In this document: positions 590 to 49,774 of the stretch, one piece after another
How the letters are laid out: each line of letters opens with the position of its first letter
Numbering within the stretch: the first letter of the stretch is position 1
Assembly: GCA_036785375.1 (NCBI GenBank)
Contig: JAWMAR010000097.1
Location: 4,464,001-4,528,000, forward strand
Length of the DNA: 64,000 nt
Direction of reading: 5' to 3'
From: Leucoraja ocellata
Lineage: Eukaryota
Notes under the pieces: model-generated
What the model was told of the DNA's origin: nothing
The model's input: the letters and a program-made list of their open reading frames with translations, nothing else
Databases searched by the model: none
Made by a program: the position numbers and the translations under genes

Positions 590-1533
590 TGCCCAAGCAA
601 AATATGAGATGGTGTTCCTCCAATTTGTGTTTAGCCTCACTCTGACAATGGAGGAAACCGAGGAAGGAAAAGTCTGTGTAGGAATGGGAAGGAGAATTAA
701 AGTGGCTGCAACCGGGAGATCGGGTTGGTTCACTCGGGCTGAGCAAAGGTGTTCCGCAAAACGATTGCCCAGTCTGCATTTGGTCTCGCCAATGTATAAA
801 AGTCCACATCTTGAACAATGGATACAGTAGATGAGGTTGGAGGAGGCGCAAGTGAACCTCTGCCTAACCTTGAAGGATTGTCGGGGTCCCTGGACAGAGT
901 CAAGGGAGGCGGTATAGTGTCGGGTGTTACATCATCTGTGGTTGCAGGTAATGGTACCTGGGGGAGGGGGTGGTTTTAGTGGGAAGGGATGAGTTAACCA
1001 AGGAGTTGCAGAGGGAACGGTCTCTGCGGAAGGCGGAAAGGGGTGGAGATGGGGAAAATGTGGCTAGTGGTGGGATCCCATTGGAGGTGACGGAGAATTA
1101 GGTGTTGTATTCGACGGCTGATGGGGTGGAATGTAAGGACTAGGGGACTCTGTTGAGACTAGGGGGAGGGGAAGCAAGGGCAGAGTTGCGGGGTACCGAG
1201 GAGACACTAGTGAGGGCCTCATCTATGATGGGAGAGGGGAGCTCCTGTTCCCATAAGAATGATGACATCTCGGATGCTCTAGAGTGGAGCACCTCCACTT
1301 GGGCGCACTTGCGGCGTAGACGGAGGAATTGGGAGTAGGGGGATAGAGTCTTTGCAGGAAGCAGGGTGGGAAGAAGTGTATAGTTGTGGGATTCAGTGGG
1401 TTTGTAATGGACGTCAGTCTATAGTCTATTTCTTGTGAAGGAGACTGTGAGATCAAGAAAGGGGAGGGAGATGTCATAGATGGTCCAAGTAAACGAGTGC
1501 AGGATGAAAATTGGTGGTGAAGTTGATGAAGTC
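590..1533 (-). mobile_element. Penelope-like retroelement fragment (RT C-terminus and GIY-YIG endonuclease), degraded
   Basis: Minus-strand peptides HFNSPSHS and EAKHKLEEHHLIFCLG; reverse-complement homology to 32928-33960. Confidence 0.85.
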
Positions 1534-3470: not shown

Positions 3471-5925
3471 TTTGAAAATTTGAAGAATGAGATAATTTAA
3501 CATCTTAAAAACTGAACTCTGTATTTTTCAGTTGGTTCTAAGTCTAGATATGACTTGGTTGATGTTTAATGTTGAGCCAGCTGGCTTCCAATACACTTCC
3601 TGTATGTAGTGTTGGTGACTGCCCCACGCCTGAAATCAGAATATGCAGCATTATCAGTTCATGTTGACTTCTGGTTTCCAAGTAGGAGATCAAAACATAG
3701 TGGTTACTGAACGATGGCATTTTCTTTTCATTTTAGTAGAGTTATCTGGAAGAAGACGAGAACTAAGCCTTGTTGAAGATAATAGTAAATATAGGAAGGG
3801 AAGATGCACAGTGCTGGAGTTACTCAGCGGGTCAGGCAGCATCTCTGGAGAACATGGATAGGTCACATTTTTCTCAGACTCTGATCAACTGAACAAGGGT
3901 CCTCCTGAGATGCTGAGTTACTCCAGTGTCTTGTAAACAAGCATCTGTATTTCCTTGTTTCTAAATATAGTAAGGGATTTGGTTGAGGCACTTGCTGTGG
4001 TAACACGAGGTAAAACTGGATCAACAGGTGCAAGGGAACAAAGGAAATGTAGAAAAGTATGCTGTGCAATAACGTGAGCAGATTTGAGTGGAATATAACT
4101 ACAGCATAAACATTTCCGCCTGTTCCCGGAGTTTATATTCTTTGTTAAAATTGGTGACAACATTTAATAAAGTCCATCAGATTGGGTTTTCCCTGTAAAC
4201 TGCCCCTCATCAGAAACCTTTGACTTGTAAACTCCTTTCAAAATTCTAAAATCCTTCATTAAATTACCATTTGACCATTTCTTGTGCAGGGAATAAAAGC
4301 TTAATAAGAAAATCAAAGAACTGCCGAAATGGGGGGGGGGGGGGGGAAACAGTTCTGATGAAGGGTCATGAAACTGAAACTTTATCTATTTATCTTTCTT
4401 AAGAGGGGCCTTGACCTGAAACACCGCCAATCCACTTTCTCCAGAGATGCTGCCTGACCCACTGAGTTACTCTGACCCTTTGTGTCTCTTTCCACAGGCT
4501 GCCTGATCTCCTGAGTGTTTCCAACATTTTCTGTTTTTATCCTAATGTACATAATTTCTGAAGTTAAATAATAGATCCCGCGAGTGCTGATAACATTCTG
4601 GGAATATGTGGTGTGCTCCTTGCAAGCTCAATGTTCTCTAAGGTACACTGCCCAGAACTGTAGGAGGCAGTGTGGTACCCAAGATTTAGACATTCTCCAC
4701 ATGTTCAATGCTGAATGTATACATTTTATCCCCTCCTAATCCCATTACATTGAGTAGCAGTGAACCTGCAATTGTTCTATAAATTACAGAACCTGTTATC
4801 TGAAATACACAGCTTTATTATATATCGTTATATTCATTATATATCAAGAATATCATTCAATGTTTGTGGCACTTCAAGTTCAAGTTCGCGTTTATTATCA
4901 TTTAACCAACTAAGGTACAGTGAAATTTGAGTTACCACATGAAGAAGATGTCAGCAGTCAAGCAGCATCTGTGGAAACAAAAAGGGATTGTTGATGTTTT
5001 GGTCCAGACCCTGCTTCAGGATGAGAAATTGGTCGTGGTCTATAGATTCTGGAAATGTTTCTGTGGTTTGGAGGGTATCAAATGTGACCCTGATGTTTAA
5101 AAGAACAGAGGAAAACAGAAAATGGAGAACTACTGCACCTATCAGTCTAATGTCAGTGATAGGGAAGATCCTGCAAATGATGATGAATGATATAGTAACA
5201 GAACACCATAAATGAAATAATAGATTGAGCAGAGTAACATAGATTTAAAGAAGTTATATTTGACAAATCTGCTGGAATCCATGATGGGCCAAAGGGCCTG
5301 TTCCTGTGTTGCCTTGTTCTGTTCTATGGCCAAGCCTCCATAGCCTTGTGGGAAGTGAACTCTGAAGTTTTAGTTTAAATATCAAAGACCATTCTTCCTT
5401 TGGAAAGTGAACAATTGGATAAGCATCTGGCATAATGCTCCATCACCCTGATCAAAGATATGGCCTGGATATATACAGGGTTGTTCTCAAATACCAACTT
5501 TGTGTTTGTCATCAAACACCAGTTTCCATTTACTATTTTGGTTGTTGCACGGTGATGGTGGAGAAGTGGGTTTGGGCTTGTGCTCATTGTTAACCCCCTC
5601 CTTTACTTCAGTTTGCTTCTGACTTGCCCACTTGCACTGCTCAGGACAAATTGATTATTGGTGTCGGGTTTGTATACTAATGCAGGACGTTTTACTTTTG
5701 AATGATCCCACCAGTAAGTCGATCAGCTGAAAAGGGAACACTAGACTGATAATTATTGTGATTATTGTATTATTCAATTTTGATATTTGATCATGTTGGG
5801 ATGATGCACCACTATGTTTAATGGGTTTGTTGCAATTGAAAGTGGCAACTTCAAACTAACATGACTGAAATGTGATTAACTCCTCACAGGCCCTACGTTT
5901 ACAGTGGTTCTGATTTGTCTTGCAG

Positions 5926-8724: not shown

Positions 8725-11009
8725 GTATAGTAAATTACCAACATGTGTTACAGCTGTTGTTATTTCTCTCTGAATTGTTCTTCGAGGCCTTCGCACGTGA
8801 CTGGGCCAAATGGCCTTTGGTGTTCTTCCCTTGGACGGAAGCATGGCTAGAAAGACCATTTTTTATTGGCTGTCCAAGATGTATTTGAAGATGGTGTTCT
8901 TCCATGAAGTAACCTCCAGAGTACTCTGTGGCAGAGAATTCCAGAGATGTGTCGCCTTCTGCAAGAAAGAATTTCTAAGTACCAAAGTTTTGCATCTCGC
9001 ATCATTTTGACATCCACCTAACAAGTTCCCTTAGTGTCTGCAGATATCAATAAGAGTGTGCCTCATTTTCCTAAACTCCATTTAAACAGATCCAACCTGT
9101 TTAGGACAATGCTCACATTCCAGAAAATAGCCTAGTGGATATCCTTTGGACTGTGAATGCTGATCTATCCTTTCTAGGGAAAGGGGACCAAAACTGCCTA
9201 CAGTGCTCCAGATGTGACACTGCAAGCACTGTACAATTGTTCATATTTGTTTCGAGTTACAGCATGGAAATTGCCCCTTCGGCCCACCAAGTCTATGCCG
9301 ACTGTCAATTATAGTAAAGCTTCCCTATTTCTCAACCCCAACCCTGTGTCGTCTTAACTATTGCTGCATCTGCCTGCTAACTTGTGTTTTGTGCGCGGTA
9401 AATCCATTTGACAAGTTTTTGTCCTCGCTCACTCAATGCCCTTTTGTAGAATCTCAGTATCTTGATTGTTGTTTCCCTTTCCAACCATTTCACACCATCA
9501 GCAAATCTGAACACCTTATATTCTCTTCTTCTCCCCCCCCCCCCCCCTCTCCAAATCATTAATAACAAGTTACTGAGGCCAAGAAGTGAACTGGGCAACA
9601 CTACTCATTGCATCCTGAAAAATATCCACTTGTCTCATATGTTTTGCTTTTCAGGAAAACAGGTTGATTTGTTATGTTTGTGTTTGTTTGTGGGAGCTTG
9701 TTTTGCATAGCCGATCTGTCATATCTCTATCCTTGCCATCATGATTACAACACACTGCCCAATGACTGCAAGGTTTCCCAGAGTATCTTGAGATTGTGAA
9801 AGAAAGGCACAGTAGTTTTTTTTCTGCTTTTAGTTTTGTTCCTGCTTTGGAGACACAAGACTGCAGATGCTGGAATCTTGAGCAAATGTGCTGGAGAAAC
9901 TCAGCAGGAGGAACACGTGTGGAGGGAAATAAAAGGCGATGTTTCGGGTCAGTGGCCCATCTTCAGACGATCCAAGCTTTTGCTTTTCTTGAAGGAGAGG
10001 TTGCATTTTCATCCCAAACTATGACTGGTGACTTTACTTCAATACTCATCTAATATTAGAACTACAAGATTTCCTGGCTTGAAATGGTAAAGTTATGCAA
10101 TTGCGAAATGGAGCTGCCACTGAGAATTTCAAACATTAACTGACCGTATTGGCTTTAAAAAGATTTTAGTCCTGTGACAGCAATCAGATTTGATTTCTTG
10201 TGCAAAGTATTAGCAGGTCACGACAGCTCTTCCACAGGTTCCTGCTGTGCATTGGAATCAGCCCATTATGACCAATCTTTATTGTCCTTGGCCTGTATTT
10301 GTTCCACACCACCCTCCAGCTAATTAGTGATGCCATTTACCTCCTGAAAATGCTATTTAAAAAAACACTAGGTTTCGGAATGGAAACACAATCGGCAAAC
10401 ATTGTGTGTAGGAGATATTGTGTGTCTGAAGAAGGGTCTCGACCCAAAACATCACCCATTCCTTCTCTCCAGAGATGCTGCCTGTCCCGCTGAGTTACTC
10501 CAGCAATTTGTGTCTACCAGCAAACATTGTGGGTGTTCGAAGTCTCCACTGATTTGTATGAATCAGGTGTTCAGTGTAGACACAAGCAACTACAGATGTT
10601 GGAATCCTGAGGAAAACTCAAGGTGCTAGAAGAACTCGGCTGGTCAGACAGTATCTGTGGAAGTAATGGACAGACGATGCTTTAGGTCGGGACCCTTCAT
10701 CAGACTCTCCCCTCATGTTCAGTATATTGTGACGAATATTCAAATTACTCTTTAAAGGCATGTTTGGTCAGTGCCAAGTACAGAATGAGGAACAGTCCTG
10801 GTCTCCTTCTCATAAACATATATTCTACTGATTCTTGGCAGGTTTTTTGCATCCATTCATTATCGTTAGTCTCTGTTCCCAGTAATATTTTAAAATGAAC
10901 ACTCCAGGAAAGCAACCTTGGGTGGTTTCTCAGATGTTCCTCGAGTTTGATTAATTGAAAGATGCAGCATGAAAACAGGCCCTTCGTTCTATTTTTGATC
11001 ACCTATTTA

Positions 11010-12345: not shown

Positions 12346-13709
12346 TACGAGTTGTGGTCTAGTGTCTTAGAGTCAGACTGTTTTCCTCCTGCTCTGTTTA
12401 CCTGAGTTCTATTCTGAGCATTGCCTTTACTTGCTTTGCTGACTAGATGGGATTACTGTGCTATTTTTATTCTGCTTCATTTGCCACCACAGTGAAACAT
12501 TTACAAGTGGGCTTCTTGATTAACCAGCAACTGATTTACTGTATAGCTGGTTGGTCATGTGATGTTTCAAAGGCTTCTGTGTCAAAGTAAGAAGGCATCT
12601 CTAGAGAATACTCCCAAGTGTAGACATGAATTCATTAATTATGGTAAGGGCATATCTTCAGACACAGTGGTCCAGTTAAAAGGTAAGTGCATTGAAGTTT
12701 ATTCACACAGCAAGCAGCATTGTATCTGAGAACCAGAGAGTATGTGTATTCAGACACCTGCAAAGGAAAGTGTGGCTTTGACTAGTGAAGAGAGACTTGT
12801 AATAAAAAATGAATTGCAGATGCTGGTTTACACTAAAGTTAAACACAAAATCCTGAAGTAACTCGGCGGATCAGGCAGCACCTACGAAGAAAATCAATAG
12901 GTGACATTTGGATCTAGACCCATTGTCAGACTTGTATTTGAGAAGTTAGGACAGCAATGCTCAAAAGTAAATGTGACTATTTTAACAATAAGCTATTTGC
13001 AACTTTTGTTCCTTGCATATTAATGTGGTTTGCACTATTCTTAGATTACCTGTATTTTTGGGGTATCTATAGTGTTCTTCTCTCCAATACTTCAGCCTGT
13101 GGGTTCCCTACAGTTTATCTAATGGCGAGCTTGGTTGTTATGTTAATTATGACATGATGTGCCGAGTGCCTTGTGCAGGAGGAAGTGAGGGCCAATCAAT
13201 TAGAAGATTCGCAGAAGGTAGAATTGTCTGCCAACGCTAGAGTGTTTTTGTTTACTCATCTCTTACTTATCTGGTAGATCGCTTATCTCCGATCTCACAG
13301 CTCTGATCGAGTGTCATCCACTGCGGCCTGACGAGACCAAGCCATTGCTTCCATGATTGCATGCAGATATTTCCAAGAGCAATGGACCTGTTGAAATATT
13401 TGAATAATGTATAAAATAAATTAGTTTTTTCAAATGGTTAATTATGGATTTTTTCTGTATTGTATAGCAGGGGGGTGCGCGGCAAGTTCAATAGCAATTT
13501 TGAAAAGGGAATTGGATATGTATTTGAACAAAGCATTGTAGGTCTATTGGGGATAATGCAGAGAGTAAGACCAATCAGAGAGGCCATTCAGAATCCACGC
13601 AAAGACAGCGGATCGAGTTGCCTGCACTGTTCGATTCTGCAATTCTGTAAAATGCGCTTCAAAGGTGCAGCTTTTCAACTGACTGACGTTGATTTCATTG
13701 CTGTTGCAG

Positions 13710-18300: not shown

Positions 18301-18868
18301 TCATCCAGGGTTGTCTTACCTTGCCATATTTGTACATTCTCCTATTGAGCTCCATGCAGCTGAGCCTTAAATGATTCCCACATATCAGATGTGCACTTGG
18401 CTAAGTACAGCTGCTCCCAGTTTATTCTCCCAAGCTTGATAATGTTATAATTTCCCCCCTCCAATTGAGAATTTCCTTTCCCCAATGGTCCAAACTTGTC
18501 CTTATTCATAACCATCTTTACAACTTGGGAAAGAACTGCAGATGCTGGTTTAAATCAAGGGTAGACTCTAAATGCTGGAGTAATTCAGCGGGACAGGCAG
18601 CATCTCTGGAGAGTAGGAATGGGTGACATTTTGGATCAAACCCTTTTCTTCAGACTGAGACATGTTTGACAACTTAGGAGTTGTTGTCAAACATGGAGAG
18701 ATTACTGGGTCAGTATTCTAGAGTTTAAAAGAATGAGCCTGATCCCACTGAAAAGTACACATTTCTTTGTGCTTTGTGGGGATTGATGCTTCCACTGGTC
18801 AAAGAAATAATGGTCAGCCTCAAAATCAGGCATTCAGGACAGATGAAAAGTAACACTTTCACCCAGAG

Positions 18869-22190: not shown

Positions 22191-23453
22191 GTAAGACCAG
22201 TAGTGTTATAGATATTTGGCATGAACTTCGTATTGGTCACGAGAGCTTCGAGGGGTATATGTTATTCTGGGGGGTCATAGCAGAGCTCCTGTTTAAAAAA
22301 AAAAAACTTAATATGGTTTAAGAAGGAATTACAGATGCTGGAAAATCAAAGGCAGACAAAAATGCTGGAGAAACTCAGCGGGTGACACAACATCTATGGA
22401 AATAGGCAACGTTTCAGGTCGAAACCATTCTTCAAACTTAATATGGTTGTTTGTTAAAAAATGTAAAATGTTCTTGAGCATGCCAAGTGATATTTGATCA
22501 CTTGATCGTTTGGGGAGCGGTCTTGGTTTATTTCAGTTGAATTACGCATCATAGTCTCCAAGATCAGCTCCCACGAGTCTTGGGTATGAGGAGCTTCTTG
22601 TGTGCAACATGTGTGTAATGATGAGCTGATGGGTCCAACAGTGACCTGTTTGCACTTTACTGAGTGGGTTTGTCATTGAGGATAATACCATAATTAGCAG
22701 ATTGGTTAGATGATAATAGGAATAAACAGGCAGTTTTCAGGCTTGTTAACCAGTGATTAGAGGAAACCAGAAATCAATGTCAGATCAAGCTTTTTGCTGC
22801 CTATTTTAACTACATGGACGCAGGCACCAAGTGTTTGTATTGGTTCCCAATGCAAGGTAGGTGAAACAGCAGTGCACTGAAGACGACACAGTATCTTTGA
22901 TGGAATAAAGAGGTTGTTAGACAAAGCAAAACCATAATGTGGGGGAATTGTAGGGTTATCCATTTCGGCTGGGAAAAAAAACAAAATTGGAATATTAGTT
23001 TCTTGAATAAAGTTAAATGGAAAGATTTGGACATATTCTGCAACCAATGTAGTGTTACCATATGTTGATTGTTAGGGAGGGTAGAATACAAAAATAGGAA
23101 AGGCTTGTGACAAATATATAATGCTATGGCGAGATCATACCTGGTGTTGTACAGTTTACAGAAGGAAACACTTGCATTGGAAACCGTTATAGTGAAGATT
23201 CTTTCATGGAACATCTGTCTCGTATGCAATACAAGGTTTCTTCTAAACTTGGAAATCAGATTATCTTCGGCTACCTCTCCAAGGTGGAAAAACCCAGTAT
23301 ATAAGAGACTTGAGGAACTGCAGATGCCATCTTACAAAAAAATATCAAGTGCTGCAGTAACTTAACGGGTCAGGCAGCATTTGTGGGGGACATGGATAGG
23401 CGGTGTTTTTGGGTTGAGACCCTTCTTCAGACTCGTTATATAAGATAACGATA

Positions 23454-28754: not shown

Positions 28755-29389
28755 GTAAGTCGTGCACCTGTGGTAAGCTTGTTTCTCTATCCCTTAGTTA
28801 TAAATGTTTAACGTCTCCTGGGACGTGAACTTCGCAGACAACGCCCGTGCTAATTGCCCACCGCCTGGTTGCTTTGCGGTGAGTTACTCTCGGCTTGAAC
28901 GGCGGACAGTGCAACCGAGTGATCCGGACGTGTTCCAACCCCAGCCCAACTGTTTCCATCCTGGAAAATGGTTACTTGGTTCAGGGATTACCAAGGAATA
29001 TCTGATCACGCTGTTAACAAAGCGACCTGTTTGAGGATCTATGCTATTTGGAGGATGCGAGTATGTTGATGCATGGTGATTGATCAGACTGGCTGAGGGT
29101 TGCGCAAGTATATATGGTCCCTTCCTGTGTGTAAGTGCTGTGTGTAGAGCCAGGAGACAGGGTTCTCATGCAGAGGAAGATGCTACTGACATTAGTTGAC
29201 CTGTAGATACTTTGTCCATCTCTTTTCTTTTTAAACAAGTGCACTACTTTAGCAACTGTCAAGTTCACCAGCACAATTTCAATAGCCAAAGAGGATTGGG
29301 AAATAATATTTGGAGCCTACATTATAGCTTACCATATTTCAAGAGACGGAGATACATTGTATGAATGCCTGTAGATTTATCTACTTTTA

Positions 29390-29690
29390 AGTTTAGTTTG
29401 GAGATGATGTGGCAGTAGGCCCTTTGGCCCAGCGATTCTGTGCTGACCAGCGATCTCTGCACACTAACTCTATCTCACAGCAGGGACAATTTACATTTTT
29501 AACAAAGTCAAGTAACCTCCAAACCTGCACGTCTTTGCAGTGTGGGAGGAAACTGGAGCAATCGGAGCAAACCCATGCAGGTCACGGAGAGAATGTGCAA
29601 ACTGTGCAGACAGCACCCGTAGTCAGAATTGAACCCAGGTCTCTGGCGCTGTAAGGCAGCAATTCTACCACTGCACCACTGAGCCGTGCT
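29390..29690 (-). mobile_element. tRNA-derived V-SINE
   Basis: Homologous to 26915-27212. Confidence 0.85.
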
Positions 29691-30644
29691 AGATGCTAAA
29701 CCCTTGCTATGTCCTTTTCCTCTTTCTATTTCTAGTGCAGCATATTGTTTCTCCATGATACTGGTTCACTCTCTCTCCAGAGGCTCTCTCCATGCGGCTT
29801 CCTCTTTATTCTTGTGAAAAATACCTATTGTTTTGTTTTCATTTTGCCTGCCAGTGTTTTATTCATTAACTTTTTTTGTATACTAATTTCCATTTATATT
29901 CCTCCTCTGGAGTTTCTATTGTATTTGGGCTTTCTGTGATGTTGACCCGCTATTTGTCAGAACCTTTTTTGTTGCCCTACGCAGTGTAATATTTTACAAC
30001 GATGTCCAGGTCTCATAAAGTGAACTACAAAGAATGCTAACCATCATGCACGCCCTCTTCAGCCAGTATTAAACTTTATTCCATTTTCTGCCTTGGTGCT
30101 AGTTCAAGTTGCTCTCTGTACAACCACACTATATGAGCAACATCCTTTCAGTTATCTATCTCTGTAAGGAATGTCCAAATCCACCAAGTAATGACATAGC
30201 TTCTGTTGACAGTAATGATTCCTGTATTCATGGCCAATTATAGTTAACAGCCACTCGTGTAGTTGCTACTGGTATGTAGTTGCTTATTATTGAATAGCAC
30301 AAAAGAAACTGCATGTTAGAATTCACTACTAATTGAAATTGACTTAAACACTAAATGTAAACATAAATTTTACAACAGCACAATTCTGTTAATAACTCCC
30401 ATGCATACCAAATTCCAGATTGTACTGTGTAAAAAAATATTGACAATTGGGAGGGAGGGGAACAATTTTATGAGTAAAAATGATCCAATAAAGACAAGAG
30501 GGTCACTAATAAATGGGGCTCTGTGTGAATTTAAGCATGAGTGCAGAGCCAATGTGGAACTGTAGTGTGCAGTTGACAGGAATAACACATTTACGGATAA
30601 GCTAGATAAATGGATTACAAGGGAAAAGGTAGATCTATATCATA

Positions 30645-30855
30645 GACACAAGGAACTGCAGGTGCTGATTTACATAAAAAGACACAAAGTGCTGGAGTAA
30701 CAGCAGGCCAGGCGGCATCTCTAGAGAACATGGATAGACAACGTTTCCGGTCGTGACCCTCAGAAGAAAGGTCCCTACCCAAAATGTCCCTATCCAAGTT
30801 CTCTAGCGATGCTGCCTGACCTACTGAGTTACTCCAGCATTTGGTGTATTTTTAG
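30645..30855. repeat. Palindromic head-to-head pair of Penelope-derived short repeats
   Basis: gctggagtaac..gcatctctagagaacatggatag on the left mirrors ctatccaagttctctagcgatgctgc..gttactccagc on the right. Confidence 0.8.
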
Positions 30856-30983
30856 AGAGAGATATATATATATCTTGGTAGGATGGAATGAAATTCACAT
30901 GAAGGAACATAAATGCTAGTATGGACCATGTGGGTTGAGTGGCCTGCTTCTGCCACACAAGAATGTTTGGAGGTGCACCTTGA

Positions 30984-31241
<258 letters not shown>

Positions 31242-32147
31242 TGAGAAACCTCAGCAGTCAAATTGCTGCTGAGGATGGCACTCTCTCCAAACCAGAACCT
31301 TGAACCCGAACCCGAGCAAGAGAGAGCCATCCTGGTGCTACAAGGAGGGTGAATGGTGATCAGCAGTGTCGCAGTGGACCAAACTATCAGATGCTAACTC
31401 ATCAAACATTAATCCAAGCCTGTGCACATAGATCTAAATATCTCACAGCTACTAACTAATACGAGGGCTGTGGAGTTATCCCTGAACCAACATCAACCAG
31501 GTTATGTGATCATTGTATTATTAGTTTGTGGGCGACTCCTGAATGCAATGACCTTCCAAGTTGCTGTGCCTTTTATTCCGGGGACATCGGGGTTGAAGGC
31601 GTGACCTTATTGCCGTTCATGAAATCATGAGGGGCAAAGACCAAGTGAATGGCCACTGTCTTTTCCTCGGGGTGGGAAGTGTAAAATTTGAGAGCATGGG
31701 TTGAAGGTGAGAGGGGAACGTTGTGCAAGGGACCCAGGGGGTGGTGTTTTTCCCCTCACAAGGTGATGCATGTATGGAACAAGCTGCCAGAGGAAGTAGT
31801 AGAAGCAGGTACAATAGAAGTAATAGAAGCAGGCGTTTAGAAAATGATGTACATGGATGGATAAGGAATGTTTGAAGGGCCAGGCACAGGCAAGCGGGAC
31901 TGGGTTAGGCAAATTGGGCCAGAGGGACTGTTTCCATGCTGGATTGCTCTTTGACTCTCTGATTGCTGTTAGTAGTGACCATGCTTCAGAACTTTATAGC
32001 ATACAGAGTGCTTTGTATGTTCAGAGATATGATGGGCACTATATAAATGCTAAAATTCTTCTCTCAATCAACCCGAGCACAATATTTAACTGGACAATTA
32101 TCGATGCCATTTAGGGGAAATTGATGTCTGGATAGCGCCTGCTTTTA

Positions 32148-32312
32148 GACAATAGGTGCAGGAGTAGGCCATTCGGCCCTTCGAGCCAGCACCTTCATTC
32201 AATGTGATCATGGCTGATCGTCCACAATCAGTACTCCGTTCCTGCCTTCTCCCCATATCCCCTGAATCTGCTATCTTTAAGAGCCCTATCTAGCTCTCTC
32301 TTGAAAGTATCC
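32148..32312 (-). mobile_element. CR1 3' tail
   Basis: gacaataggtgcaggagtaggccattcggcccttcgag motif. Confidence 0.8.
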
Positions 32313-32490
32313 TACAATTGGATACTTTAATATTGAAAGTAACCGAAAGTAATCTACAATTGGCTCATTGGGAAATACTTTGCCAGGTTTTTGCAAATTG
32401 TCGAGTTTAAGTTTTGATTTATTTAATGCCAGCGTTTGAAGAAAAAATTAAGATAGAGTTGTGACTGGTTGTGCTTCTGTGTTTGACCAG

Positions 32491-32624
32491 ATCAATCCTT
32501 TGAGTCGGAAATAAATTACAACAACCCTCTGGGGACGGGCGGGCGCCTGGCCATTGGTTTTGCAGTGCTGCTGAGGGCTCTGTGGAAAGGAACGCACCAT
32601 GCCTACCAACCGTCTAAGTTAAAG
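32491..32624 (+). CDS. USP19: USP19 exon (DQSFESEINYNNPLGTGGRLAIGFAVLLRALWKGTHHAYQPSKLK)
   Basis: accag acceptor, AAG|gtgagt donor; 134 nt, phase 1-0; USP NPLG.GG motif. Confidence 0.97.
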
Positions 32625-32927
32625 GTGAGTGATCCCTCCTTGGCAGAACCGCGCACCCTGGTGTCAGCACAACCTGTTAAGCTGAGCATCGTTGGAGCCT
32701 TATGGGAACAGGAGGAAGAGAATGAGGCGGTTTAGTCCCTTGGGCACGGTCGGCTGAAGAAGGAATTAGATATTTAAAGTGGGAGGATTAAATATGTGTG
32801 GAGCTTGCTTAACGGAAAAAAATGTGTGGGCAGGCACCATTCTGCTAAAGAATAATAATTACAGGTTATACAGTGAGTGGGAATTTGCTTTGCGAGAAAT
32901 TTGAGTGGGGCAGAGATTACATTACAC

Positions 32928-34270
32928 GTACCTGTTCCAGGCCCTATCCCTGAACTCTACCTCCATTACATTGATGACTGCATCGGTGCTACCTCCTGCA
33001 CCCTTGCAGAACTCATGGACTTCATCAGCTTTACCACCAATTTTCATCCTGCACACAAATTTACTTGTACCCTCTGCGACACCTCCCTCGCCTTTCTCGA
33101 TCTCACAGTCTCCATCACAGGAAATAGACTATTGACTGACGTCTATTACAAACCCACTGACTCTCACAACTAGTTCGACTACACTTCTTCCCACCCTGCT
33201 TCCTGCAAAGACTCCATCCCCTACTACCAATTCCTCTGTCTACGCCGCATCTAAGCCCAAGTTGAGGTGTTCCATACTAGAACATCCAAGATGTCCTCAT
33301 TCTTTAGGGAACAGGAGTTCCCCTCTCCCATCAACGATGAGGCCCTCACTCGTATCTCCTCGGTACCCCGCAGCTCTGCCCTTGCTCTCCCTCCCCCTAT
33401 TCGGAACACAGCCATAGTCCCCCTAGTCCTTATCTTCCACCCCATCAGCCATCGCATACAACACATAACCCTCCAAAATTTCCGCCACCTCCAACGGATC
33501 CCACCACTAGCCACATTTTCCGATCTCCACCCCTTTCCGCCTTCCGCAGAGACCGTTCCCTCCGCAACTGCCTGGTTAACCCATCCCTTCCCAAACCACC
33601 CCCTCCTCAGATACCTTCCCCTGCAACTGCAGAAGATGCAACACCTGTCGTTATTTCTCCTCCCTCGACTTGCACCCCCTCCAACCTCATCTACTGTATC
33701 CGTTGTTCAAGATGTGGACTCTTCTACATCGGCGAGACCAAACGCAGACTGGGCGATCGTTACGCGGCACTTCGTCGCTCGGCCCACGTGAACCAACCTG
33801 ATCTCCTGGTTGCGGACACTTTAATTCTCCTTCCCATTCATACACAGACCTTTCTGTCCTCAGTCTGTCAGATTAAAGCTAAACGTAAATTGGAGGAACA
33901 GCATCTCATATTTTGCTTGGGCAGCTTACAGCCCAGTGGTATGAATATTGATTTCTCTCACTTCAGGTAGCCCCGGCATTCCTTCTCTCTCTATCCCTCC
34001 CCTAGCTTCACATTTTCACCCAACAAGCAGCTTACAATGGCCTGGTTCCGTTATCATCGTTACTTTTTTGCATATCTTTCATTCATTGTTCTTTATCTCT
34101 CCACATCACAGTCTATCTCTCGTTTCCCTTATCCCTAACCAGGCTGAAGAAGGGTCTCGACCCGAAACATCACCCATTCCTTCTCTCCAGAGATGCTGCC
34201 TGTCCCGATGAGTTACTCCAGCTTTTTGCGTCTACAGTTTAACCAAGCATCTGCAGTTCTTTCTTACACA
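32928..34270 (+). mobile_element. Penelope-like element, 5'-truncated: RT (YIDDC), GIY-YIG endonuclease and 3' repeat with hammerhead-like core
   Basis: YIDDC..FLDL..YYKPTD RT motifs; IYCIRCSRCGLFYIGETKRRLGDR at ~33689; tail ctgaagaagggtctcgacccgaaac. Confidence 0.92.
34141..34176 (+). ncRNA. Minimal type I hammerhead-ribozyme-like motif in the Penelope 3' repeat
   Basis: CTGAAGA-A-GGGT(ctcg)ACCC-GAAA-C-ATC; other copies retain GAAACGT; stems I and III are very short. Confidence 0.55.
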
Positions 34271-35384
34271 AATACATTGAAGGACCAAGTTCTTTTGCCC
34301 ACAATGTCTGTGCCAAACAATTGTGTCAAATTGATCTAATCCCTTCTACCTGCATGTGATCCATATCCTTCCATTTCCTGCATTTCCATGTGCCTATTCA
34401 AAAGCAGCTTAAATGCCCCACCACCCCTGGCAGCGGGTTCCAAGCAGCCACCTGGGCAAATGATTCTAGTAGTCTACCCGTATCCATATTTCCCCTGTTA
34501 AACAGTTGACTTGTGTTGAGGAGATGCTTGGGTGTGTGCGGGGCGGTCATTGAAGAATTTTCCAAAAACACTTGCCCCAGACTGTGTGTAGTTTGGTTTT
34601 TTGATTGTACGTGAAACGTGACTGATTGGAAGGTTGATTGGCATTATCCTGTTTCAGTCTAAAAGGTTCAAACGGGTAAATGGTTCTCGCCTGTTTTATT
34701 AGAAATGGCAGTGCAAGATTCAGTGTTGATCTACATCAGTAGGATGATGAGTGTTTCTGTGCCTCATTCCCAAATAAAATCTGAAAATCTATTCATTGTG
34801 GGGATTGTTGCTTCCCCTGGTCAAAAAGCCTGCAAACTAGGTCAGTCTCTAAATCAGGCATTCAGGACAGAAGGAAAGTAACGCCTTCACACACAGGTGG
34901 TGAGTCTATTGGAATTCACTACCTGCAAGGATTGTGGAGTCTCGGTTACTGAGTATATTCAAGGCAGTTATCAATAAATTGTCATCAATAGAGATAACAG
35001 GTTTGTGCAAGAAAATAGCACTGAGGTTAGAGTTTGTTCATGGTCTTATTGAAAGGAAGACCAAGCACAAGAGGGCGAATGATTCTGCTGCTTGTTTTCC
35101 ACTTACAAATGGTAAATTATATAGAAGAAGTAGTGGACGAACGTGGCAAAATGAACGGGAGAGCTCTGTCAGTGGACTTTCTCATCTGCAGTGATCGCTA
35201 CTGGGAATAAACTCCGCTGCAATACAATAATTGTGAAAGCTTTGTAGTTTTAGTAGGGAGTGGAATATCGAATTTTTCTGAATGGTCTTTCTGCTTATAA
35301 TTCCATAATCATGAAAATCTGCCTGTGTCCAATAAGTAATTGAGAGAATTATTACTGAGCAGAAACTTTTTCAATGTGTAGTAA

Positions 35385-35945
35385 GGAGATCTTTCTGCAG
35401 TTGCACAGGGCCCTGGTGAGACCGCACCTAGAGTATTGTGTGCAATTTTGGTCTCCTAATTTGAGGAAGACATTATTGAGGGAGTGCAGCGAAGGTTCAC
35501 CAGGTTAATTCCTGGGATGGCGGGACTGACATTTGTGTTCACTGGAATTTAGAAGGATGAGAAGGGATCTTCTAGAAACATATAAAATGTGGACCGGCTA
35601 GATGCAGGAAAAATGTTCCCAATGTTGGGGAAGTCCAGAACCAGGGGTCACAGTTTAAGAATAAGGGTTAGGCCATTCAGGACTTGGATAAGGAAAAAAC
35701 TTTTCACCCAGAGAGTTATGAATCTGTGGAATTCTCTGCCACAGAAGGTAGTGAAGGCCAATTCACTGGATGTTTTCAATAGAGAGTTAGATTTAGCTCT
35801 CAGGGCTAAGGGAATCAAGGGATAAGGGGGAAAAGTAGGAATGGGGTACTGATTGTGGATGATCAGCCATGATCATATTGATTGACAGTGCTGGCTCAAA
35901 GGGCCCAATGGCCTACTCCTGCAACTATTTTTCTATGTTTCTATG
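35385..35945 (+). mobile_element. CR1 3' fragment
   Basis: [13 protein letters not shown] and RTRGHSL..NLWNSLP peptides, (tttctatg) tail. Confidence 0.9.
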
Positions 35946-36849
35946 AGCCAATAATATCGGCGACAGCCATTCAAACATAGTTTTCAGGAACAGAGGCCTC
36001 CAAAGAATCTGAGCCTTTAAGTGTGAACTTTTCTCCAAGTGGGTAACTCCTCAAGACCATGCCCCTAATTCCGAGATTCTGGCCTGAGGGAGCAGCCTCA
36101 AATCTATCCTGGCCGTTTTACTCGGCATCCTCAATGTCCTTTCTCATTCCTATTAATTCAAGACAGTGTAGACCATTTGCTTTTGCTCTCTCGTGAGACA
36201 AACATCCAAGGGAGCAATCTAATGAACCTATGCTGCTCTAGCTGCAGGGACTGTGTGACCTCCTTTTAGCTGCATTATTCCTTGGTCGATATGGCATACT
36301 TTGAACTGATGTAGATTATGAATATCTGGAGGTATTGTGCAGCCATGATTATCTCCCCAGGTCCCTGCTCTGCAAATGACAACAGATGCCATCTTCCGAA
36401 TAGCCTCTTTCCCTCCTCTGGCATTGTGCCGTTAAACTGCCAAAACACATTTCTCAAAAATCAGCTTTACAGAGCTGTGCCTGACGGCTTGTTAAACGGC
36501 AGCGGTGATGGAGCAGTGAGTTAGTGCTGCACTAGGGTTGCTTTTATCAGTAAGGTATGCAGTGCGGAGAAAGATTACCAGTTTGATTCCTAGGATAAAG
36601 AGATTTTTGTAGTAAGAAAGATTGGGCCAACACCTATTGGGGTTTAGAAGTGTGAGAGGCTGTGTTGAATGACACAGACTGTCCAACTGTTGCGACTGTT
36701 TCTCGGATATTAGAGCAATGACATTCTTGCTGCAGCTCAACAGGCCTATAAAGACAGTAATGCACAAAATAAAAATACAATCAGTTAATAAGTAATACTA
36801 GGTAACCATATGGTGCAAAACCAAGGTCCGTAGTGTAACGAAAGAAACA

Positions 36850-37470
36850 GTCCATAGAAGATCATAGTTGCTGAGGTTAGTGTTGTGCAGTGTTCAAGAG
36901 CCTGATGGTTGCTGGGAAGAAGCTGTTCTTGAACCTGGAGGTCACGGTTTTCAGGCTCCTGTACCTCTTTCTTCTGTTATTAGCAGTGAGATGAAAGCGA
37001 GGCCAGGATGGTGTGGGTCTTTCATATTAGCTGCCTTCTTGAGGCCGCACCTCCCGTAGATCCCTTGGATGGTGGCAGGGGCGGAAAACCCGGGGGGGGG
37101 GGGGGGGCAGGCAGAGGGGACACGTCCCCCCCATGTTTTGAGAGGTGGGGGACATCCACATCCCCCCCCCCAAGTTTTTGTGATCCCGATGTTAAAATCG
37201 CCTCTTTTAGCGCTGGATTGAGCCTCCGAAGCCTCGGGCGTATGTGTGAGTGTGCGCATGCACGCGTGGCCGCCAAAAAATTGTGTCCCCCGTCCCCTCC
37301 ATGTTTTGATAGTGAGTTCCGTTCTTGGATGGTGGGAAGGTCAGTCCCTGTGATGAACCGGGCAGTGTCCACCACTCTCTTTGTTCCTGGATGTTCGAGT
37401 TGCTGAAACAGGCCACGATGCAACCAGCCAATAAGCACTCTACTGTACACTTGCAAAAGTATGATAGAAA
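36850..37470 (-). mobile_element. Rex/Babar-like LINE 3' remnant, interrupted by a MITE
   Basis: KKAANMKDPHHPG peptide and gggaagaagctgttcttgaacctgg motif. Confidence 0.7.
37076..37327. mobile_element. hAT-type MITE, 252 bp
   Basis: TSD gatggtgg at 37068-75 and 37328-35; imperfect TIRs caggggcggaa / ttccgttcttg; subterminal gtcccc..catgttttga repeated; host LINE rejoins cleanly on removal. Confidence 0.75.
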
Positions 37471-37821
37471 ATTTGGCAATATGTGCCAAATAAATGTCAA
37501 AGTATGTGTTAAAATTAACAGGATGTAATGCAGGCTTGGAAAAGGTGTTGCTGGGCAGTTTCCACTGCTCGACCAGCAAATGTCACTGCACAGACACTCC
37601 CAGTGAGAACTGCTGTAAAAAGCTCAGCAGTCCAGGCAGTGTCTGTGCAGAAGCAATGTGTCATCTTGATTCTCATGGGCCATTTTTGGCACCTACTGAC
37701 ACTAGACCAGGGCAAAGGCCACCCAAGAGTAGAGCAGGAATATCCAATGCCTAAATCTGTGTGACGCAAATAACTCTGCCATTTGTTGTTTTGGCTACTT
37801 GTCGTCAATCTTTCCTTCCAG

Positions 37822-37980
37822 GCTATTGTGGCAAGCAAAGCCAGCCAGTTCACCGGCTACGCACAGCACGACGCGCAGGAGTTTATGGCGTTTCTGCTTG
37901 ATGGCCTCCATGAGGACCTAAATAGGATACAGAATAAACCGTACACTGAGACCGTGGATTCCGACGGGCGCCCCGACGAG
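37822..37980 (+). CDS. USP19: USP19 exon ([53 protein letters not shown])
   Basis: ttccag acceptor, GAG|gtaagc donor; 159 nt, phase 0-0. Confidence 0.98.
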
Positions 37981-38554
37981 GTAAGCTTGTTACCCCAGAC
38001 CTGACACTGTTGCCGGGGACTTTCACTGCATCTGTTCCCAACGTTACATGTTGGCCTTTGCGTACATCCCCATGAACAGTGCCTTCTGTGTATTAGTGCC
38101 TTGTCCATTCGTTAAATGCTTTGTTGTTCCTTGTTCAGTTCAGTACTGGTCAAGTTGCGGTGGAATTTTGGCCACCCTTTTAACAAAGTGAGCGTTCAGT
38201 TAACCATAGAGACAGAGAGTCCTAGAGCTATGCGGCATGGGAACAGACCCTTTGGTCCACACTGTCCATGCCAAACAAGTTGGCATATTGGGCTGGCCCT
38301 ATTTGCCTGCGTTTGGCCCGTAGCCCTTGTTATTTGGCAAGGCCTTTCACTTTCTATTAGGAAGAAACTGTCCCTCAGCAGTTTATTTTGTACTGCTCAT
38401 GCTTTCCCTGTACTGCTTGTCATACAAATAACCTTAGAGAGAAGATTAAGTACCAATGATCTCATATTGCTATTGATTACTCTGGTTGAAATAAGGAATT
38501 CTATAGCTTCTTTAATCTGCAGTGTTTCCTGTTCCTTCTATATGTGGAACGTAG

Positions 38555-40900: not shown

Positions 40901-43159
40901 GTAATTTTATATAGCTATGTAAGATTACCGAAGATAGACACAAAATGCTGGAGTAACTCAGCGGGACAGGCTGCATTTCAGGATAGACGGGATGGGTGAC
41001 CTTATCGGGTCGAGACCCTTCAGATTGAGTCAGCGGAGGGGGAGATACAGTGATAAGGAAGTGAAAGGTGTGAGTTCAAGACATCAAAGGGGGTGGAGAT
41101 CAAGGTAAATGTAGAATAGATTATTGTTGGCTGGGAGAGGGTTACAACAAAACAAACAGATCCAATGTAATCTGGACAGTCAGTCTGACTGTAAAATCAC
41201 CCTTGGCTTCCTGCGCTCCAAGGAATAAAGTCCACCCGATCACCGAAGCTGGCCTGTTCCTGCTCAAAATGGTGAATAAGCAAATGCAAAATACTGAACT
41301 CATTGAGTGTTATGGTGAAAGCAATGACCATGACCAGCAGAATGCACTCGGGACATCTTTAACTACCTACCCTAAGTGCCCCCATCAAGATGAATAATTG
41401 CTGAATATGTACAAGGGTTTCACAACTTTTCGAGCATTGAATAAAGTTATATTTGAATTTAAATGATCTGCTTTTGTGGAAAGAAGTAATTTAATGTAAC
41501 TGAACAAATGTTGCTTATGTTGTGGATGATGTCATCTTCTGAACTGCATCCACACAGACTTGTATATTCCTAACATAACACTAGGTGGTGATGTTCAGCT
41601 GAAGTTACAGCGTGAAAGCCAAATAAGGATGTAGACCTCATACAAGAAAACTTGCACGTAAGCAATGGCTTCTAGTGTCTAGTGCTTCTGAAATAGGACC
41701 CAGTGAAGGCTGGAGAGGTTTACTGCATTTGAAAGATGCGGAGGGTTGTATAGCACAGACATGGGTCCCTTGGCCGACCATGTCCATGCCGAAATCACTT
41801 GCCCACATTAGGACCATATCCTTCTGTGCCTTGCCCATTTAAGCCTGTCTAAATGTCTGTTAAATACAGTGATATCAGATTACACCTCTGGCAGCGAGCT
41901 CCTGATATCAACCACTGTGCGTGCTTAAAAGATCTTCCCCCAAATTCACTATAAAACTCCTTCCTCTCACCCCAAACTTGCCCTAGTTTCTGATACTTCT
42001 ACTGTGAACAAAATATTCTACCTGCCCTATGTTATGTCTGTTATAATTTCAGTCGTACAAGCAGAAACAGACCCTTCAACTCGTCTGCACCAACCAAGAT
42101 GCCGAGCTGGGCTAGTTCCATTGACTTGGATTTAATCCATATCCCTCTAAACCTTTGCTGTCCGTGTGCCAATTCCAATGTTATTTTAATGTTGCAGTTG
42201 TACCTGCCCCTACCACTTCCTCTGGCAGCTCATTCCACATAACCTGCACCCTCTCTGTGGGAAAACCTGTTCCTTGGATCCCCGTTAAATCTTGCTCCTC
42301 TCACCTTAAGCCTAGGCTCTTTAGTTTTAGACTCTCTTAGCCTGGGGAAAAAGGCAGGTCTGCAAGGTTGGATCACATTGGACCTAGGGTGAGGTTGCCA
42401 ATTGATCAGTGTGGTAACGGGTTGTTTTTCACACTGGTGGCCTGTGACTGGTGATGTGCACACTTTATTGATATTAATGGATTGAACGTAGATTGTGGTG
42501 GAGCAGTGTTTGGAACTGAGGCTGTAGTTATTATTGGTTGTGAGAGGGACAGGACTGACCGCTCAACATCCAGGTTTCCGATGTTTCAGACGTGCTAGCG
42601 AGAGAGGTGGGTGGGTTACATTACTAATCGGGGAGAATGTCACAACATCACTCCGAGGTCACATTGGAGGAGTCGCCCTCTGATGCAATATGAGTAGAGC
42701 TAAAAAATAAAATGTTCAATCACTCTCTGGAATTAGCAGCTGGAGATTTTTTATATTCCCTCTAGCCTCAGGCAAAGGGCTGGAGGATAGCCAAAGTTGT
42801 TCCCTTGTTTCAGATGGGAATAATCCAGGAAATTAAAGGCATGTGAATTTCACATTATTGATCGATAGGTGTCATGTTCAGCACAGACATTGTGGGCTGA
42901 ATGGCCTGCTCCTGTGCTGTACCTTTCTACATTTATCAGTCAGTGCTACCCTAATCAAGTTCAAGCAATCCTTTCCCCAAATGCCTAATAGGAGCGTGGG
43001 TGTATAGTTGTTGAGACACCGTCACATACTCTGCTTTTCATATGAGGTGTAAATGAATTTTAAAAAAGCTCAAAATGTATCTCGTGCTGTTGCAGCAATC
43101 AATTTCCCAAACCAAATAAGTCGCCTTTCAGAGTGGTATGTGTGGTAGTTGGGAAACAT

Positions 43160-44180: not shown

Positions 44181-45475
44181 GTAAGAGCAGTGTTGCTGTG
44201 TAGAACTGGTCAACACAGCTACATGGTGTATACAATTCCCGTCACACAGTCGTGGAAGTGAGGGGACTTGCTTTGACATGGGCAATACAAGATTGAACAG
44301 AGGGACAGTTACATTAGAAAGGCCACTAATCAAATACCAAACATTATAAGTGGATAGTAAAACACAAAGTGCTGGAGTAACTGAGCAGGTCAGGCATCAC
44401 CTGTGGAGGGAACGGACAGACGACATTTTGGGTCGGGATTGTTCTTCAGACTGATGGAGTAGGTGGAGAAAGCTGGGAAAGAGAGGTGGAGGTGAGACAA
44501 GGTCTGGTAAGTGATAGGTGGATACAGGCGAGGGGGTGATTGGCAGATGGGTGGAGATAGTGCCGAAAGCTAGAGATGTAAAGGTGATTGTAGGTTTTTT
44601 AATATTATTGTCATATATACTGGGAGAGTGAAAAGCGTTGTTTATTTTATTGTTGTTTGTAAAGTGTGAAGGCAGAGCAGCGGTTAATGCACTGTCTCCC
44701 GCGGGCGGCCACAGGACAGTGAATAGTCCATCTTTGCACTGTTGATGTTTGAGGCTATAATTTCAAATTGATCAGTCTCACTTGTTGGCAATTCTCTGGA
44801 GATGCTGGGTCTGTCCCTCAGAGGAGACTTGCAAAGACATGACTGATGTTCTGAAACTCAGTTTATACGTCATACGGCACAGAAACAGGCCCTTTGGCCA
44901 CTGTATCCGTGCCGACCATTGAGTAGCCATCTATGTGAGTTTCATTTTCCAGCAGTCTCTACAGTTCTTCCCTTCCTTTGCAATTTAAATGGCCAGCCAG
45001 AGACAACTTTAATGTGTGTGACTCTGCACCGACCACTCCTTAGGGCATTCTTCCTCCGATCCTCTCTTAACTTTCCTACCCCTTGCCTTAAATCTGTGCT
45101 CTCTGGTTCTCCTCTGCTATGAAGAAACTATTTGCACTGTTCCCCAATCCATGCCCTCATGACTTTGTATCTCTGAATCCCTTGCCCCCACCCTTGGCTT
45201 CTTCTGCTACAAGGATAACAATTGCAGCCTCTTCAGTGACAAAACTATACATCTGTGAAATAATTCTGAGATTTCCTTCCTAAACCTCTCTGCCTCGATT
45301 TCTCTTTTAAGATGCTCCTCCAAACTTGCTCTCATTGCCCAGGCTCTTGGTTAACCATCTAAATTGCTTGATATCAGAGGTTGCTTATGGTCTTGTGATG
45401 ACCCTTGCAATGTTTTGCCGCTAAAGGCGCTCTAAATAAATTCTGTTAAAGTGATTGCTCCTTTTCTACCAACAG

Positions 45476-45577: not shown

Positions 45578-46857
45578 GTAAGTCTTCGAAACGCCGCAAA
45601 GGTGATGGCATTAAACTGGAGCAGGCCCTGGGGAAGTGGGTTAAACTCAGCACTGACATTTCTATCTTGGAAATCCACCTTTGTCTATAGCATGCAGAAC
45701 ACAGTGCTGGAGTAATTTGGTGGGTCAGGGGACATCGGTGGAGGGAATTGAAAGGCAACGTTTTGGGTCTTGATCCTTATACTTGTTCTGTCAGAATTGT
45801 TCTGGAGTCTGCAAGTCAGTGTTAAACTCTGATGACATTGATGGGAGCAAAAACAAATATCGAAAAATGTTTAAGAATTGTTTCTCTCATTTTATTAAAA
45901 TACTCTTCTTCATAAACCCTTTGCTGATAAGGTAAAATACCTTTGGTTTGAATTGGATACGAGACCGGAGGTGGTGACAGAACTCCAGGGAAATGTTCCC
46001 CCAATTTAAAACAAATCCATTCTGTGAATTGGGCTGAATTTCCAAGAGAAATTAGTTGAAAGTCCCCAAACAAGATAGTCCTTTGTTTACAACAGGATTC
46101 CCAGACTCGCTATGTGCTTTCCTGAGCATATCGAGGGCACATTCCATTCCATTCCACATTTAACTGGTGTTTCTGATCCTGAATATTGATGAATAATTTC
46201 AGCTTGCAAAACGTGCACTTCCGATTGACACTGAGAAGGTAGTTGGTTCTGGGAATGAAACCTCCGAGATTGATTAACCTGCCAACAGTCTGTCTTAATA
46301 TAGTAACTGTGGGCCCTACTGCCCTTCAGCCTGCCCTGGAGTTCAGTCAGATCATTGATGTTCTGTGACCTATCTCCAGCTGCATTAATGCAGAGAAACT
46401 TAACAACATGATGGCAGCTTTTCTGCATATGGACTACAGCTTTGTAGATTTAAATACTCTTTAAATACACAGTGAACTACATTTTAAATGATATGAGTGG
46501 GTCTGCCACTTCCTACCATTCCCCTCCACCTTCTGGATGAAACCCAAATACTTTAGATTTTTAATTCTTGTTAAGAAAAACGAGTCCTGTCTGTAGATCA
46601 CTTGCAATTTTATGTGCCCAATGACATCTCCTTTGTTTCCTATGTTCCTGAAAGAGAAACTGCAACTTATCCAGACTCTGACTCAAATTTTCCATTCGGG
46701 TCGACAACTGTCCATGCAATTGCATCTTTCCTGTTAGTAAGCAGCCTACACACTTGAGCTGAGGCCCAACAACTGATGTATCCTGTTTCAGCCTAACCTC
46801 TCTGCCCTTGCAGTTTGTGCTTTGGCTAGTAAAGAAATATCTTTATAACCATCTTCA

Positions 46858-48794: not shown

Positions 48795-49774
48795 GTACGT
48801 CACCAATTATTGTTTCTTCTGAACTGTCTTTGGTTGCCTGCTTTCTGATGGGGTGGCAATAGGGGTTGCTGTAGCCTTGAGGCAGGGAGAGGTCGTTTAC
48901 AATGAGACACAAAGAACTGCAGATGCTGGTTTACAAAAAAAGACAAAGTGCCAGAGTAACTCAGCAGGTCAGATAGCATAAATGTAAGATACAATTATGA
49001 CTTTTAAAGGACATTTGAACGGATATATTGATTAGGTTTAGAGAACAAGACATAAGGATCTGGGGGGAAAAGCAGGAACGGGATACTGATTTTGGATGAT
49101 CAGCCATGATCCTATTGAATGGCAGTGCTGGCTTGAAGGGCCGAATGGCCTTCTCCTGCACCTATTTTCTATGTTTCTATGATCTGCAGATGCTAGAATC
49201 TTGCGTTGAACACGAAGTGCTGGAGAAACTCAACAGATTAGGCAGCATCTCTGGAGGACATGATTAGAGTTTGGAGGCTGGGTCAAGAATGTTTAACTGA
49301 CATATATACTATAAGCGGAACAATTAAATTCTTACTATGGCCGAATGCTGGCAAATGTGACCAGCTGAGTATACCAACTCGGTTGGCATGGAGAGGGTGG
49401 GCCAAAGGACCTGTTTCCGTGCCAGATAACTTTATAACTCTGACAAAGTGAGGAATGGCAACACAAATGTGACATCCCTGATACAAATAAAGATTGAGCA
49501 AATTGTCTGACGTTGGAGAATTCAAGTTTGAGTCTGAATCGTGTTTTTGAGGTGCACTGCAGTTTCTGTGGAATAAGCTCATCCACTTGTGTGTGTGCTT
49601 TCTGTTCCTGCCCGAGCACCATCGTGAGTTCTGTTACAGTTAACCAGGTGCCACTGGGGTGAGGCCATGTTTGGTGATTGCAGAAAGAAATACATTTCTG
49701 AATCTTGTTTGGAAAGGAATCAAACGCACTGGCTGAGTTGGAGGTTGCTAACGATGCTACCTGCACCTCGAGTG

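Follow-up and report, generated by a model that had tools for sequence, protein, structure and literature searches.

The USP19 Window and its Penelope-Like Copies

The window, by which is meant the whole stretch of 64,000 nucleotides of Leucoraja ocellata DNA that was analysed, lies within USP19, the exons of which were located on the plus strand by tblastn with a 1526-aa USP19 homologue and extend from about -3.6 kb to +81 kb, so that all the module copies in the window are intronic. Twenty exon matches fall in the window, and the closest named homologues of the USP19 exon are chondrichthyan. Downstream of the exon with the catalytic Cys box lies a Penelope-like copy that ends in a short module with a hammerhead motif:

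31008..31206, plus strand: USP19 exon with the catalytic Cys box, the host gene marker
32940..34270 (about), plus strand: 5'-truncated, frameshifted Neptune-clade Penelope-like copy, with the RT motif YIDD at 32967-32978, a GIY-YIG region near 33725 (YIG 33725-33733), a 3' UTR, and the terminal module with tail
34141..34270, plus strand: terminal module (very probable pLTR/5' leader), tailed form, a profile match
34142..34173, plus strand: minimal hammerhead, damaged in this copy, in which G at 2.1 breaks the first stem I pair and ACAT replaces the palindromic ACGT; predicted cut 34171/34172
34234..34270, plus strand: "tail" of ~35 nt, which separates the short class of 3' ends (profile 385-392) from the long one (profile 425)

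The motif that the sequence-only reading had placed at the 3' end of this Penelope copy is present at 34144-34171, and consists of CUGAAGA (34144-34150), an extra A (34151), stem II (34152-55/34160-63), GAAA (34164-67), and CAUC (34168-71). The altered stem I is common to 11 of 29 similar loci (~8 independent, all chosen for their likeness), which suggests, from the sequences, that a sub-lineage may have been copied without the first stem I pair. A splice-acceptor-like pyrimidine tract followed by CAG is found in the module at 34177-34190, just past the predicted cut.

A profile of the module built from 29 genome copies gave 20 matches wholly inside the window, together with one that spans its end. 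The other Penelope-related features of the window are:

590..1533, minus strand: second Penelope-like fragment, which spans RT thumb to EN and lacks the module, and the frame of which matches PF01541 (E 7e-4, below the cut-off)
3800..3959, both strands: decayed head-to-head pair, minus arm 3871-3800, plus arm 3903-3959
4398..4488, plus strand: solo module, short end, broken core, with a degenerate partial core just upstream (~4355)
4951..5022, minus strand: decayed module
9860..9968, minus strand: decayed module
10424..10518, plus strand: solo module, short end, 17-bp target site duplication (TSD) with 2 mismatches and filler; G12 lost
10584..10706, minus strand: solo module, tailed; GAAA lost
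12808..12936, minus strand: solo module, 11-bp TSD candidate
18528..18657, minus strand: solo module, tailed, 14-bp TSD candidate; G12 lost
22316..22447, minus strand: solo module, exact 15-bp TSD; GAAACGTT intact, C3 and G10.1 mutated
23313..23439, minus strand: solo module, tailed; G12 and U16.1 lost
30650..30850, both strands: head-to-head pair, tailed arm minus 30760-30650, short arm plus 30760-30850, 10-bp TSD candidate
40927..41033, minus strand: module with UTR-like sequence upstream; CUGANGA deleted
44359..44455, minus strand: module behind the UTR of another subfamily; stem II destroyed
45699..45874, minus strand: old decayed module
48911..49256, minus strand: two 3' fragments without the core (48979-48911 and 49256-49179)

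The focal copy is 79% identical to the fragment at 590-1533. All ten further sites of the sequence-only reading were recovered to within ~50 nt, and its "4353" site proved to be a short degenerate core preceding the module that begins at 4398; the solo at 12808-12936 was absent from its list. That most copies are decayed is borne out by the 14 window copies examined, none of which combines an intact core with stem II, the palindrome, and stem I, and the TSDs show that the short dispersed copies are real insertion products.

Other repeats were also observed. A long inverted repeat at 54737-55390 (87.6% arm identity) is built from two 3' ends of an abundant LINE-like repeat, which is also found at 7576-8400 and 35380-35945, while LINE fragments lie at 23470-25430 (plus strand; endonuclease and RT) and 47476-48714 (minus strand; RT and an ALKBH8_N Pfam match). 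The Rfam scan of the window returned no hammerhead family at E<=10, and its sub-threshold miRNA-type matches at 54950-55200 were traced to the inverted repeat at 54737-55390, which is unrelated to the module.

Identity and Abundance of the Module

Walking upstream from the module led to long copies encoding an RT, a Cys-rich CxxC-CxxC linker, and GIY-YIG (translations of loci L141 and L143). Coding copies end, on their 3' side, in the module, which is read as the pLTR or 5' leader because it also stands directly before the ORF in near-full-length copies (L162, L165, L164, L170, L172, and L178). The Penelope origin proposed from the sequence alone is upheld by these domains and by the presence of the module at both ends of the near-full-length copies. 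An RT followed by a C-terminal GIY-YIG with a Zn-finger-like Cys linker is a feature of the Neptune-clade EN+ Penelope-like elements (PLEs), and is present here, as are the pLTR at both ends, the inverted 5' copy, and the one-sided tail that characterize EN+ PLEs. The linker motif, in the form given in PMC8557442, served to assign the clade. The module is thus, with little room for doubt, the hammerhead-bearing terminal repeat or 5' leader of a Neptune-clade PLE. The long copies recovered by the upstream walk, among which no intact ORF was found, form the usual 5'-truncation ladder.

Both the ribozyme and the class of element are already known, and the present family is a further member. No description of the module in chondrichthyans was found in the papers searched; Repbase, Dfam, or the supplements of papers may contain one.

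For an estimate of abundance, 89 stretches of 10 kb each, spread evenly over large contigs (890 kb in all), were sampled, and yielded 450 profile matches, 414 of them reaching the module, the 36 upstream-only pieces being dropped. This corresponds to 0.47 modules per kb and 4.9% of the sampled bases, and extrapolates to ~1.6 million copies, an approximate figure given that the assembly has apparent duplicate stretches. Many loci are present twice on different contigs, with 96-99.9% identity, which suggests retained haplotypes and may inflate genome-wide counts. The exact 31-nt pattern of the intact core has 57,428 matches genome-wide, and its reversed control none. A descriptor of the minimal hammerhead ribozyme (min-HHR) gave 114 matches in 1.49 Mb, 109 of them in the module, vs 3-9 in each of five dinucleotide shuffles.

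Conservation and Decay of the Hammerhead

The assignment to the minimal type I hammerheads with a palindromic ACGT stands, as all four subfamily consensuses conform. The CUGANGA and GAAA boxes with U16.1-H17 are found in all four, the boxes being kept in 124 of 273 ungapped copies, and the 15.2-16.2 segment, with no loop III, reads ACGT in the consensus, with CpG decay in individual copies. The 10.1-11.1 pair is GC in 276 copies and GT in 73. The extra nucleotide between 9 and 10.1, which the sequence-only reading had listed among its caveats, is A at a frequency of 0.95, and is a published feature of the minimal type (PMC4209133). A hand-made alternative, in which the motif is of type III and cut at -4/-3, was rejected, as it leaves stems I and III unpaired.

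The four consensuses keep all the core bases, and their ribozymes differ only in loop II, H17, and pair-preserving U-A/U-G swaps, a pattern that may be taken as modest evidence of constraint in the source elements. The swaps between subfamilies are one-sided only (296/101 and 183/86), and double changes in the helix pairs number 3-9 per pair, approximately the product of the single-site rates.

The proposal that the core is preferentially retained in the dispersed copies did not hold, as conservation in the 197 copies ungapped over both regions is 0.945 at the non-CpG core positions and 0.939 at 31 downstream positions, which were chosen after the profile was seen. G12, which is part of a CpG, is kept at 0.75, vs 0.78-0.83 at the downstream CpGs, and decays like any other CpG. 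Individual copies decay neutrally, and 48 of the 273 ungapped copies are fully intact. The module folds with no unusual stability relative to shuffles (z 0.77 and -0.42), the predicted active fold lies 4-5 kcal/mol above the minimum-energy fold, and the ACGU duplex is absent from the predicted dimer minimum. The ribozyme is probably functional only in the source elements, as a dimer or with the help of proteins.

Geometry of the Insertion Ends

The 3' ends of the copies are bimodal (profile 385-394 and 415-425), the two classes being ~35 nt apart, which corresponds to the known PLE tail. The stubs have TSDs of 11-16 bp, and a TSD of at least 11 bp was found in 30 of 261 solos, vs 2 of 520 shuffled flank pairings. 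Twenty of these 30 TSD-defined 5' junctions lie at -13..+8 relative to C3, four further upstream, and six at +61..+96, and none falls between +9 and +60, a range that includes the cut site (+28). Several junctions contain 4-13 nt of filler, and the TSD ends often have 2-6 nt in common with the start of the module.

The base frequencies are consistent with these junctions. In 99 solos with a unique upstream flank, the family base is present at -1 (T, 0.68) and -2 (G, 0.62), falls at -3 (A, 0.49) and -4 (C, 0.31), and reaches the background by -5, which places the usual 5' end at -2/-3. About a quarter of the solos (34/133) reach upstream of -3, and among ~23 independent copies of the leader-ORF junction, four extend upstream of -3 and eight stop at -7..+13. 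An artefact of the profile boundary explains part of the 5' pile-up, through the UTRs of other subfamilies and these 34 of 133 solos, but the TSD-defined ends remain. The CAG that precedes UCUGA resembles a splice acceptor; a splicing origin of the 5' end is nevertheless disfavoured, given that retention is as frequent for G at -2 as for T at -1, and that there is no common upstream exon.

Head-to-head pairs (149) greatly outnumber tail-to-tail pairs (25). A tailed arm is combined with a short arm in 98 of the 113 classifiable pairs, where 56 would be expected (p 2e-16), 36 pairs with an unclassifiable end having been dropped, and a TSD of at least 10 bp (mode 13-15 bp) flanks 52 of the 113, vs 7 of 339 controls. 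The head-to-head pairs are single insertions, each with one tailed and one tail-less arm. An inverted 5' copy and a 30-40-bp tail at one end are known from other PLEs (PMC8557442, PMC3846280).

Further end positions were observed at the leader-ORF junction loci (L253-L280), 13 of 30 of which lose the match ~130-146 nt beyond the end of the tail, while ~7 independent loci begin at the position of the short 3' end. These are possibly further RT start sites, although selection bias is likely, as the query ended there.

An Independent Ribozyme-Bearing Family, an Unlikely Reading

The discrete length, the TSDs, and the very high copy number would all suit a non-autonomous family of the retrozyme or SINE-like type, which would have a short RNA of its own and depend on the Penelope protein in trans; a non-autonomous ribozyme-bearing family mobilised by the Penelope element is what the sequence-only reading had proposed. 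PLE-derived retrozymes are on record for vertebrates, one of which is a chondrichthyan (bioRxiv 10.64898/2026.07.22.740005), and a solo may undergo secondary transcription from its own leader promoter. In the four clusters (289 copies), however, the attached, solo, and inverted consensuses agree within 0-2 of 104 columns, the "EN-attached" label being automatic and noisy, and copies that continue into the 3' UTR are found in every cluster. As none of the clusters has a consensus particular to the solos, the module does not represent an independent family.

Retrozymes are defined by tandem units, each with a hammerhead, which are processed to circular RNA (PMC7229834; bioRxiv 10.64898/2026.07.22.740005), and on this definition the module falls outside the class. 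The 714 matches that were sorted comprise 346 solos, 295 arms of head-to-head pairs, and only 73 in tandem, and no intact-core tandem array was seen in the 1.49 Mb sampled, in which the six arrays inspected have units of 54-66 bp without CUGANGA, although rare true arrays may exist elsewhere. The insertion ends are also away from the ribozyme cut site, where a circular-RNA route would put them, and the head-to-head junctions vary from copy to copy, which implies that each pair arose anew. Given this, a separate family mobilised in trans is an unlikely source of the stubs.

The arrays themselves form a distinct set of observations. Those at L105:5537-5890, L067:513-800, L214:7041-7310, L211:6624-7100, and L231:5824-6400 repeat a 66-bp part of the module that begins at GAAA and stops just short of the short 3' end, and the array at L109:4838-5090 has a 54-bp unit, likewise without CUGANGA. 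Several have an identical composite junction, and the arrays therefore probably move as one family; an origin through reiterative, telomerase-like copying is speculative.

Proposed Copying to the 5' End of an Uncleaved Leader RNA

The stubs are best explained as dead insertion products of the PLE, and a probability of roughly 0.8 is given to this reading as a whole. In vitro, the protein of an Anolis element cuts and extends both target strands without requiring hammerhead cleavage, and reverse transcription begins at two internal sites, one at either limit of the tail (PMC11167929). By analogy with this system, the endonuclease would nick both target strands ~14 nt apart, and each nick would prime a cDNA that starts at either of two positions inside the leader RNA, one cDNA giving rise to a solo, and two, with one start site each, to a head-to-head pair. 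The counts favour a reaction of this type, in which both strands are primed, at two start sites, on RNA that has not been cleaved. The DNA copies keep the part of the core that lies 5' of the cut, from which it follows that the RNA templates were presumably uncleaved.

The PLE pLTRs are known to contain internal promoters (PMC2377424, PMC3846280). Reverse transcription primed inside the uncleaved leader RNA would run off at the 5' end of this RNA, just before the hammerhead, the fixed end corresponding to a putative transcription start in the conserved CAGT, which is common to the subfamilies. This CAGT is taken here to be initiator-like, and an RNA start within it would account most simply for the fixed 5' end. 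The run-off step, considered separately, has about an even chance of being correct. In the RNA reads of related species, no pile-up of read beginnings or ends was listed at -3 or at the cut site, at a threshold of a fifth of the depth, an observation that is weak either way given the fragmented libraries and the many loci.

The alternative to run-off agrees on the identity of the element and differs only in the step at which copying stops. In this case, the stubs would be 5'-truncated copies of the ordinary type, for which long RNAs are primed at their 3' repeat and the RT stalls or joins preferentially at the front edge of the hammerhead, owing to folded or protein-bound RNA, or to microhomology. 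The normal truncation ladder of the long copies, the copies that reach into the 3' UTR in all four clusters, and the short stretches common to the TSD ends and the module start are all consistent with this. Read-through copies exist, and an intron end adjoins helix I in D. virilis (PMC4209133), which makes a stalling or joining preference of the RT a real rival. Stem II is merely 4 bp, however, the module folds no better than its shuffles, and the stop lies beyond the hairpin, on its 5' side, and within ~3 nt. Copies primed downstream of the leader also end there (the eight of ~23 independent loci described above), which likewise speaks against this alternative. A stop of this type may account for the stubs, but is given less credence than run-off.

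The run-off reading lends itself to a broader model, put forward tentatively, in which the stubs (about a million) would be an in vivo record of a dimeric RT-endonuclease that nicks ~14 nt apart, uses one start site per strand, and copies as far as a capped 5' end that lies three bases ahead of the hammerhead. The role of the ribozyme, which would cut ~30 nt behind the cap, might then be that of a self-decapping switch between translation and copying, rather than the processing of the template. Two open points of PLE biology can be addressed with the geometry of the ends: how inverted repeats and a one-sided tail come about, and whether the template is processed by the hammerhead.

Possible Effects on the Host Gene

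The sequence-only reading had also suggested that sense copies could cleave the USP19 pre-mRNA. The ~57,000 intact cores of the genome and the module reads in bulk RNA (0.17% and 0.28% of the reads in two runs of related species) make trans-dimers conceivable, but regulatory ribozymes of this kind are highly improbable. No window copy examined is intact, the predicted active fold is not the most stable one, and min-HHR monomers are described as inactive in vitro (PMC4209133). The sense:antisense skew of the window (3:13, p 0.02) was not replicated in 60 intragenic stretches (600 kb), assumed from neighbouring exon matches to lie inside myosin or dynein genes, in which the solos number 82 sense to 90 antisense (p 0.59) and the strict intact cores 11 to 4; there is thus no depletion of sense copies in the introns. 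A post-hoc stratum of core-less intronic fragments numbers 7 sense to 22 antisense.

The USP19 exon bins in 28000-38000 are covered at merely 0-4x by the two bulk runs of related species, a depth too low to reveal either cleavage or exonisation. At L162:1055-1230, a strand skew of ~5:1 over the module was seen in two single-cell runs of a related species, where the bulk runs are ~1:1, which might, as a guess, reflect internal oligo-dT priming on the A-rich antisense UTR.

Nothing special is indicated for USP19, and the stubs, which are mostly broken, are likely harmless to the host gene. The value of the module, which accounts for ~5% of the sampled DNA and belongs to a known class, lies in the data that it provides on the copying of PLEs.

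Comparison with Known Systems

The ribozyme closely resembles the min-HHRs described by Cervera and De la Pena in 2014 (PMC4209133) in its CUGANGA box, the extra nucleotide at 9/10.1, the G10.1-C11.1 pair, GAAA, the palindromic 15.2-16.2 segment, and the lack of loop III. The dispersal is also alike, with mostly single motifs and some opposite-strand pairs, and the known examples include fish Neptune elements. Helix I has 2 bp, as in D. virilis, whereas helix II has 4 bp here and 6-8 bp in the examples described. The 57,428 intact cores exceed the ~4,000-9,000 motifs reported for the coelacanth and Xenopus.

The non-LTR retrozymes are similarly non-coding, pLTR-related, and equipped with a type I hammerhead, but they are organized in tandem arrays that give rise to circular RNA, in contrast with the solos and inverted pairs with TSDs found here. 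The insertion unit of the EN+ PLEs (PMC8557442, PMC3846280) has the same head-to-head geometry, one-sided tail, TSD, and Neptune CxxC linker. The present unit differs in being the dominant product, with only ~95-130 nt per arm and a sharp 5' end at the hammerhead, and its TSDs are of 11-16 bp, compared with 8-10 bp in Adineta.

The Anolis Poseidon element PAc (Frangieh et al. 2024, PMC11167929) belongs to another clade, and its ORF starts within stem II, whereas the long ORF here apparently starts past the tail. The two systems are nevertheless alike in the position of the hammerhead at the pLTR-ORF junction, and PAc is described as having both strands cut and extended, with RT start sites at the two limits of the tail, ~100-150 nt downstream, and without RNA ends at the hammerhead cut. 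The combination of one tailed and one short arm in 98 of 113 pairs matches the two RT start sites of PAc in vitro.
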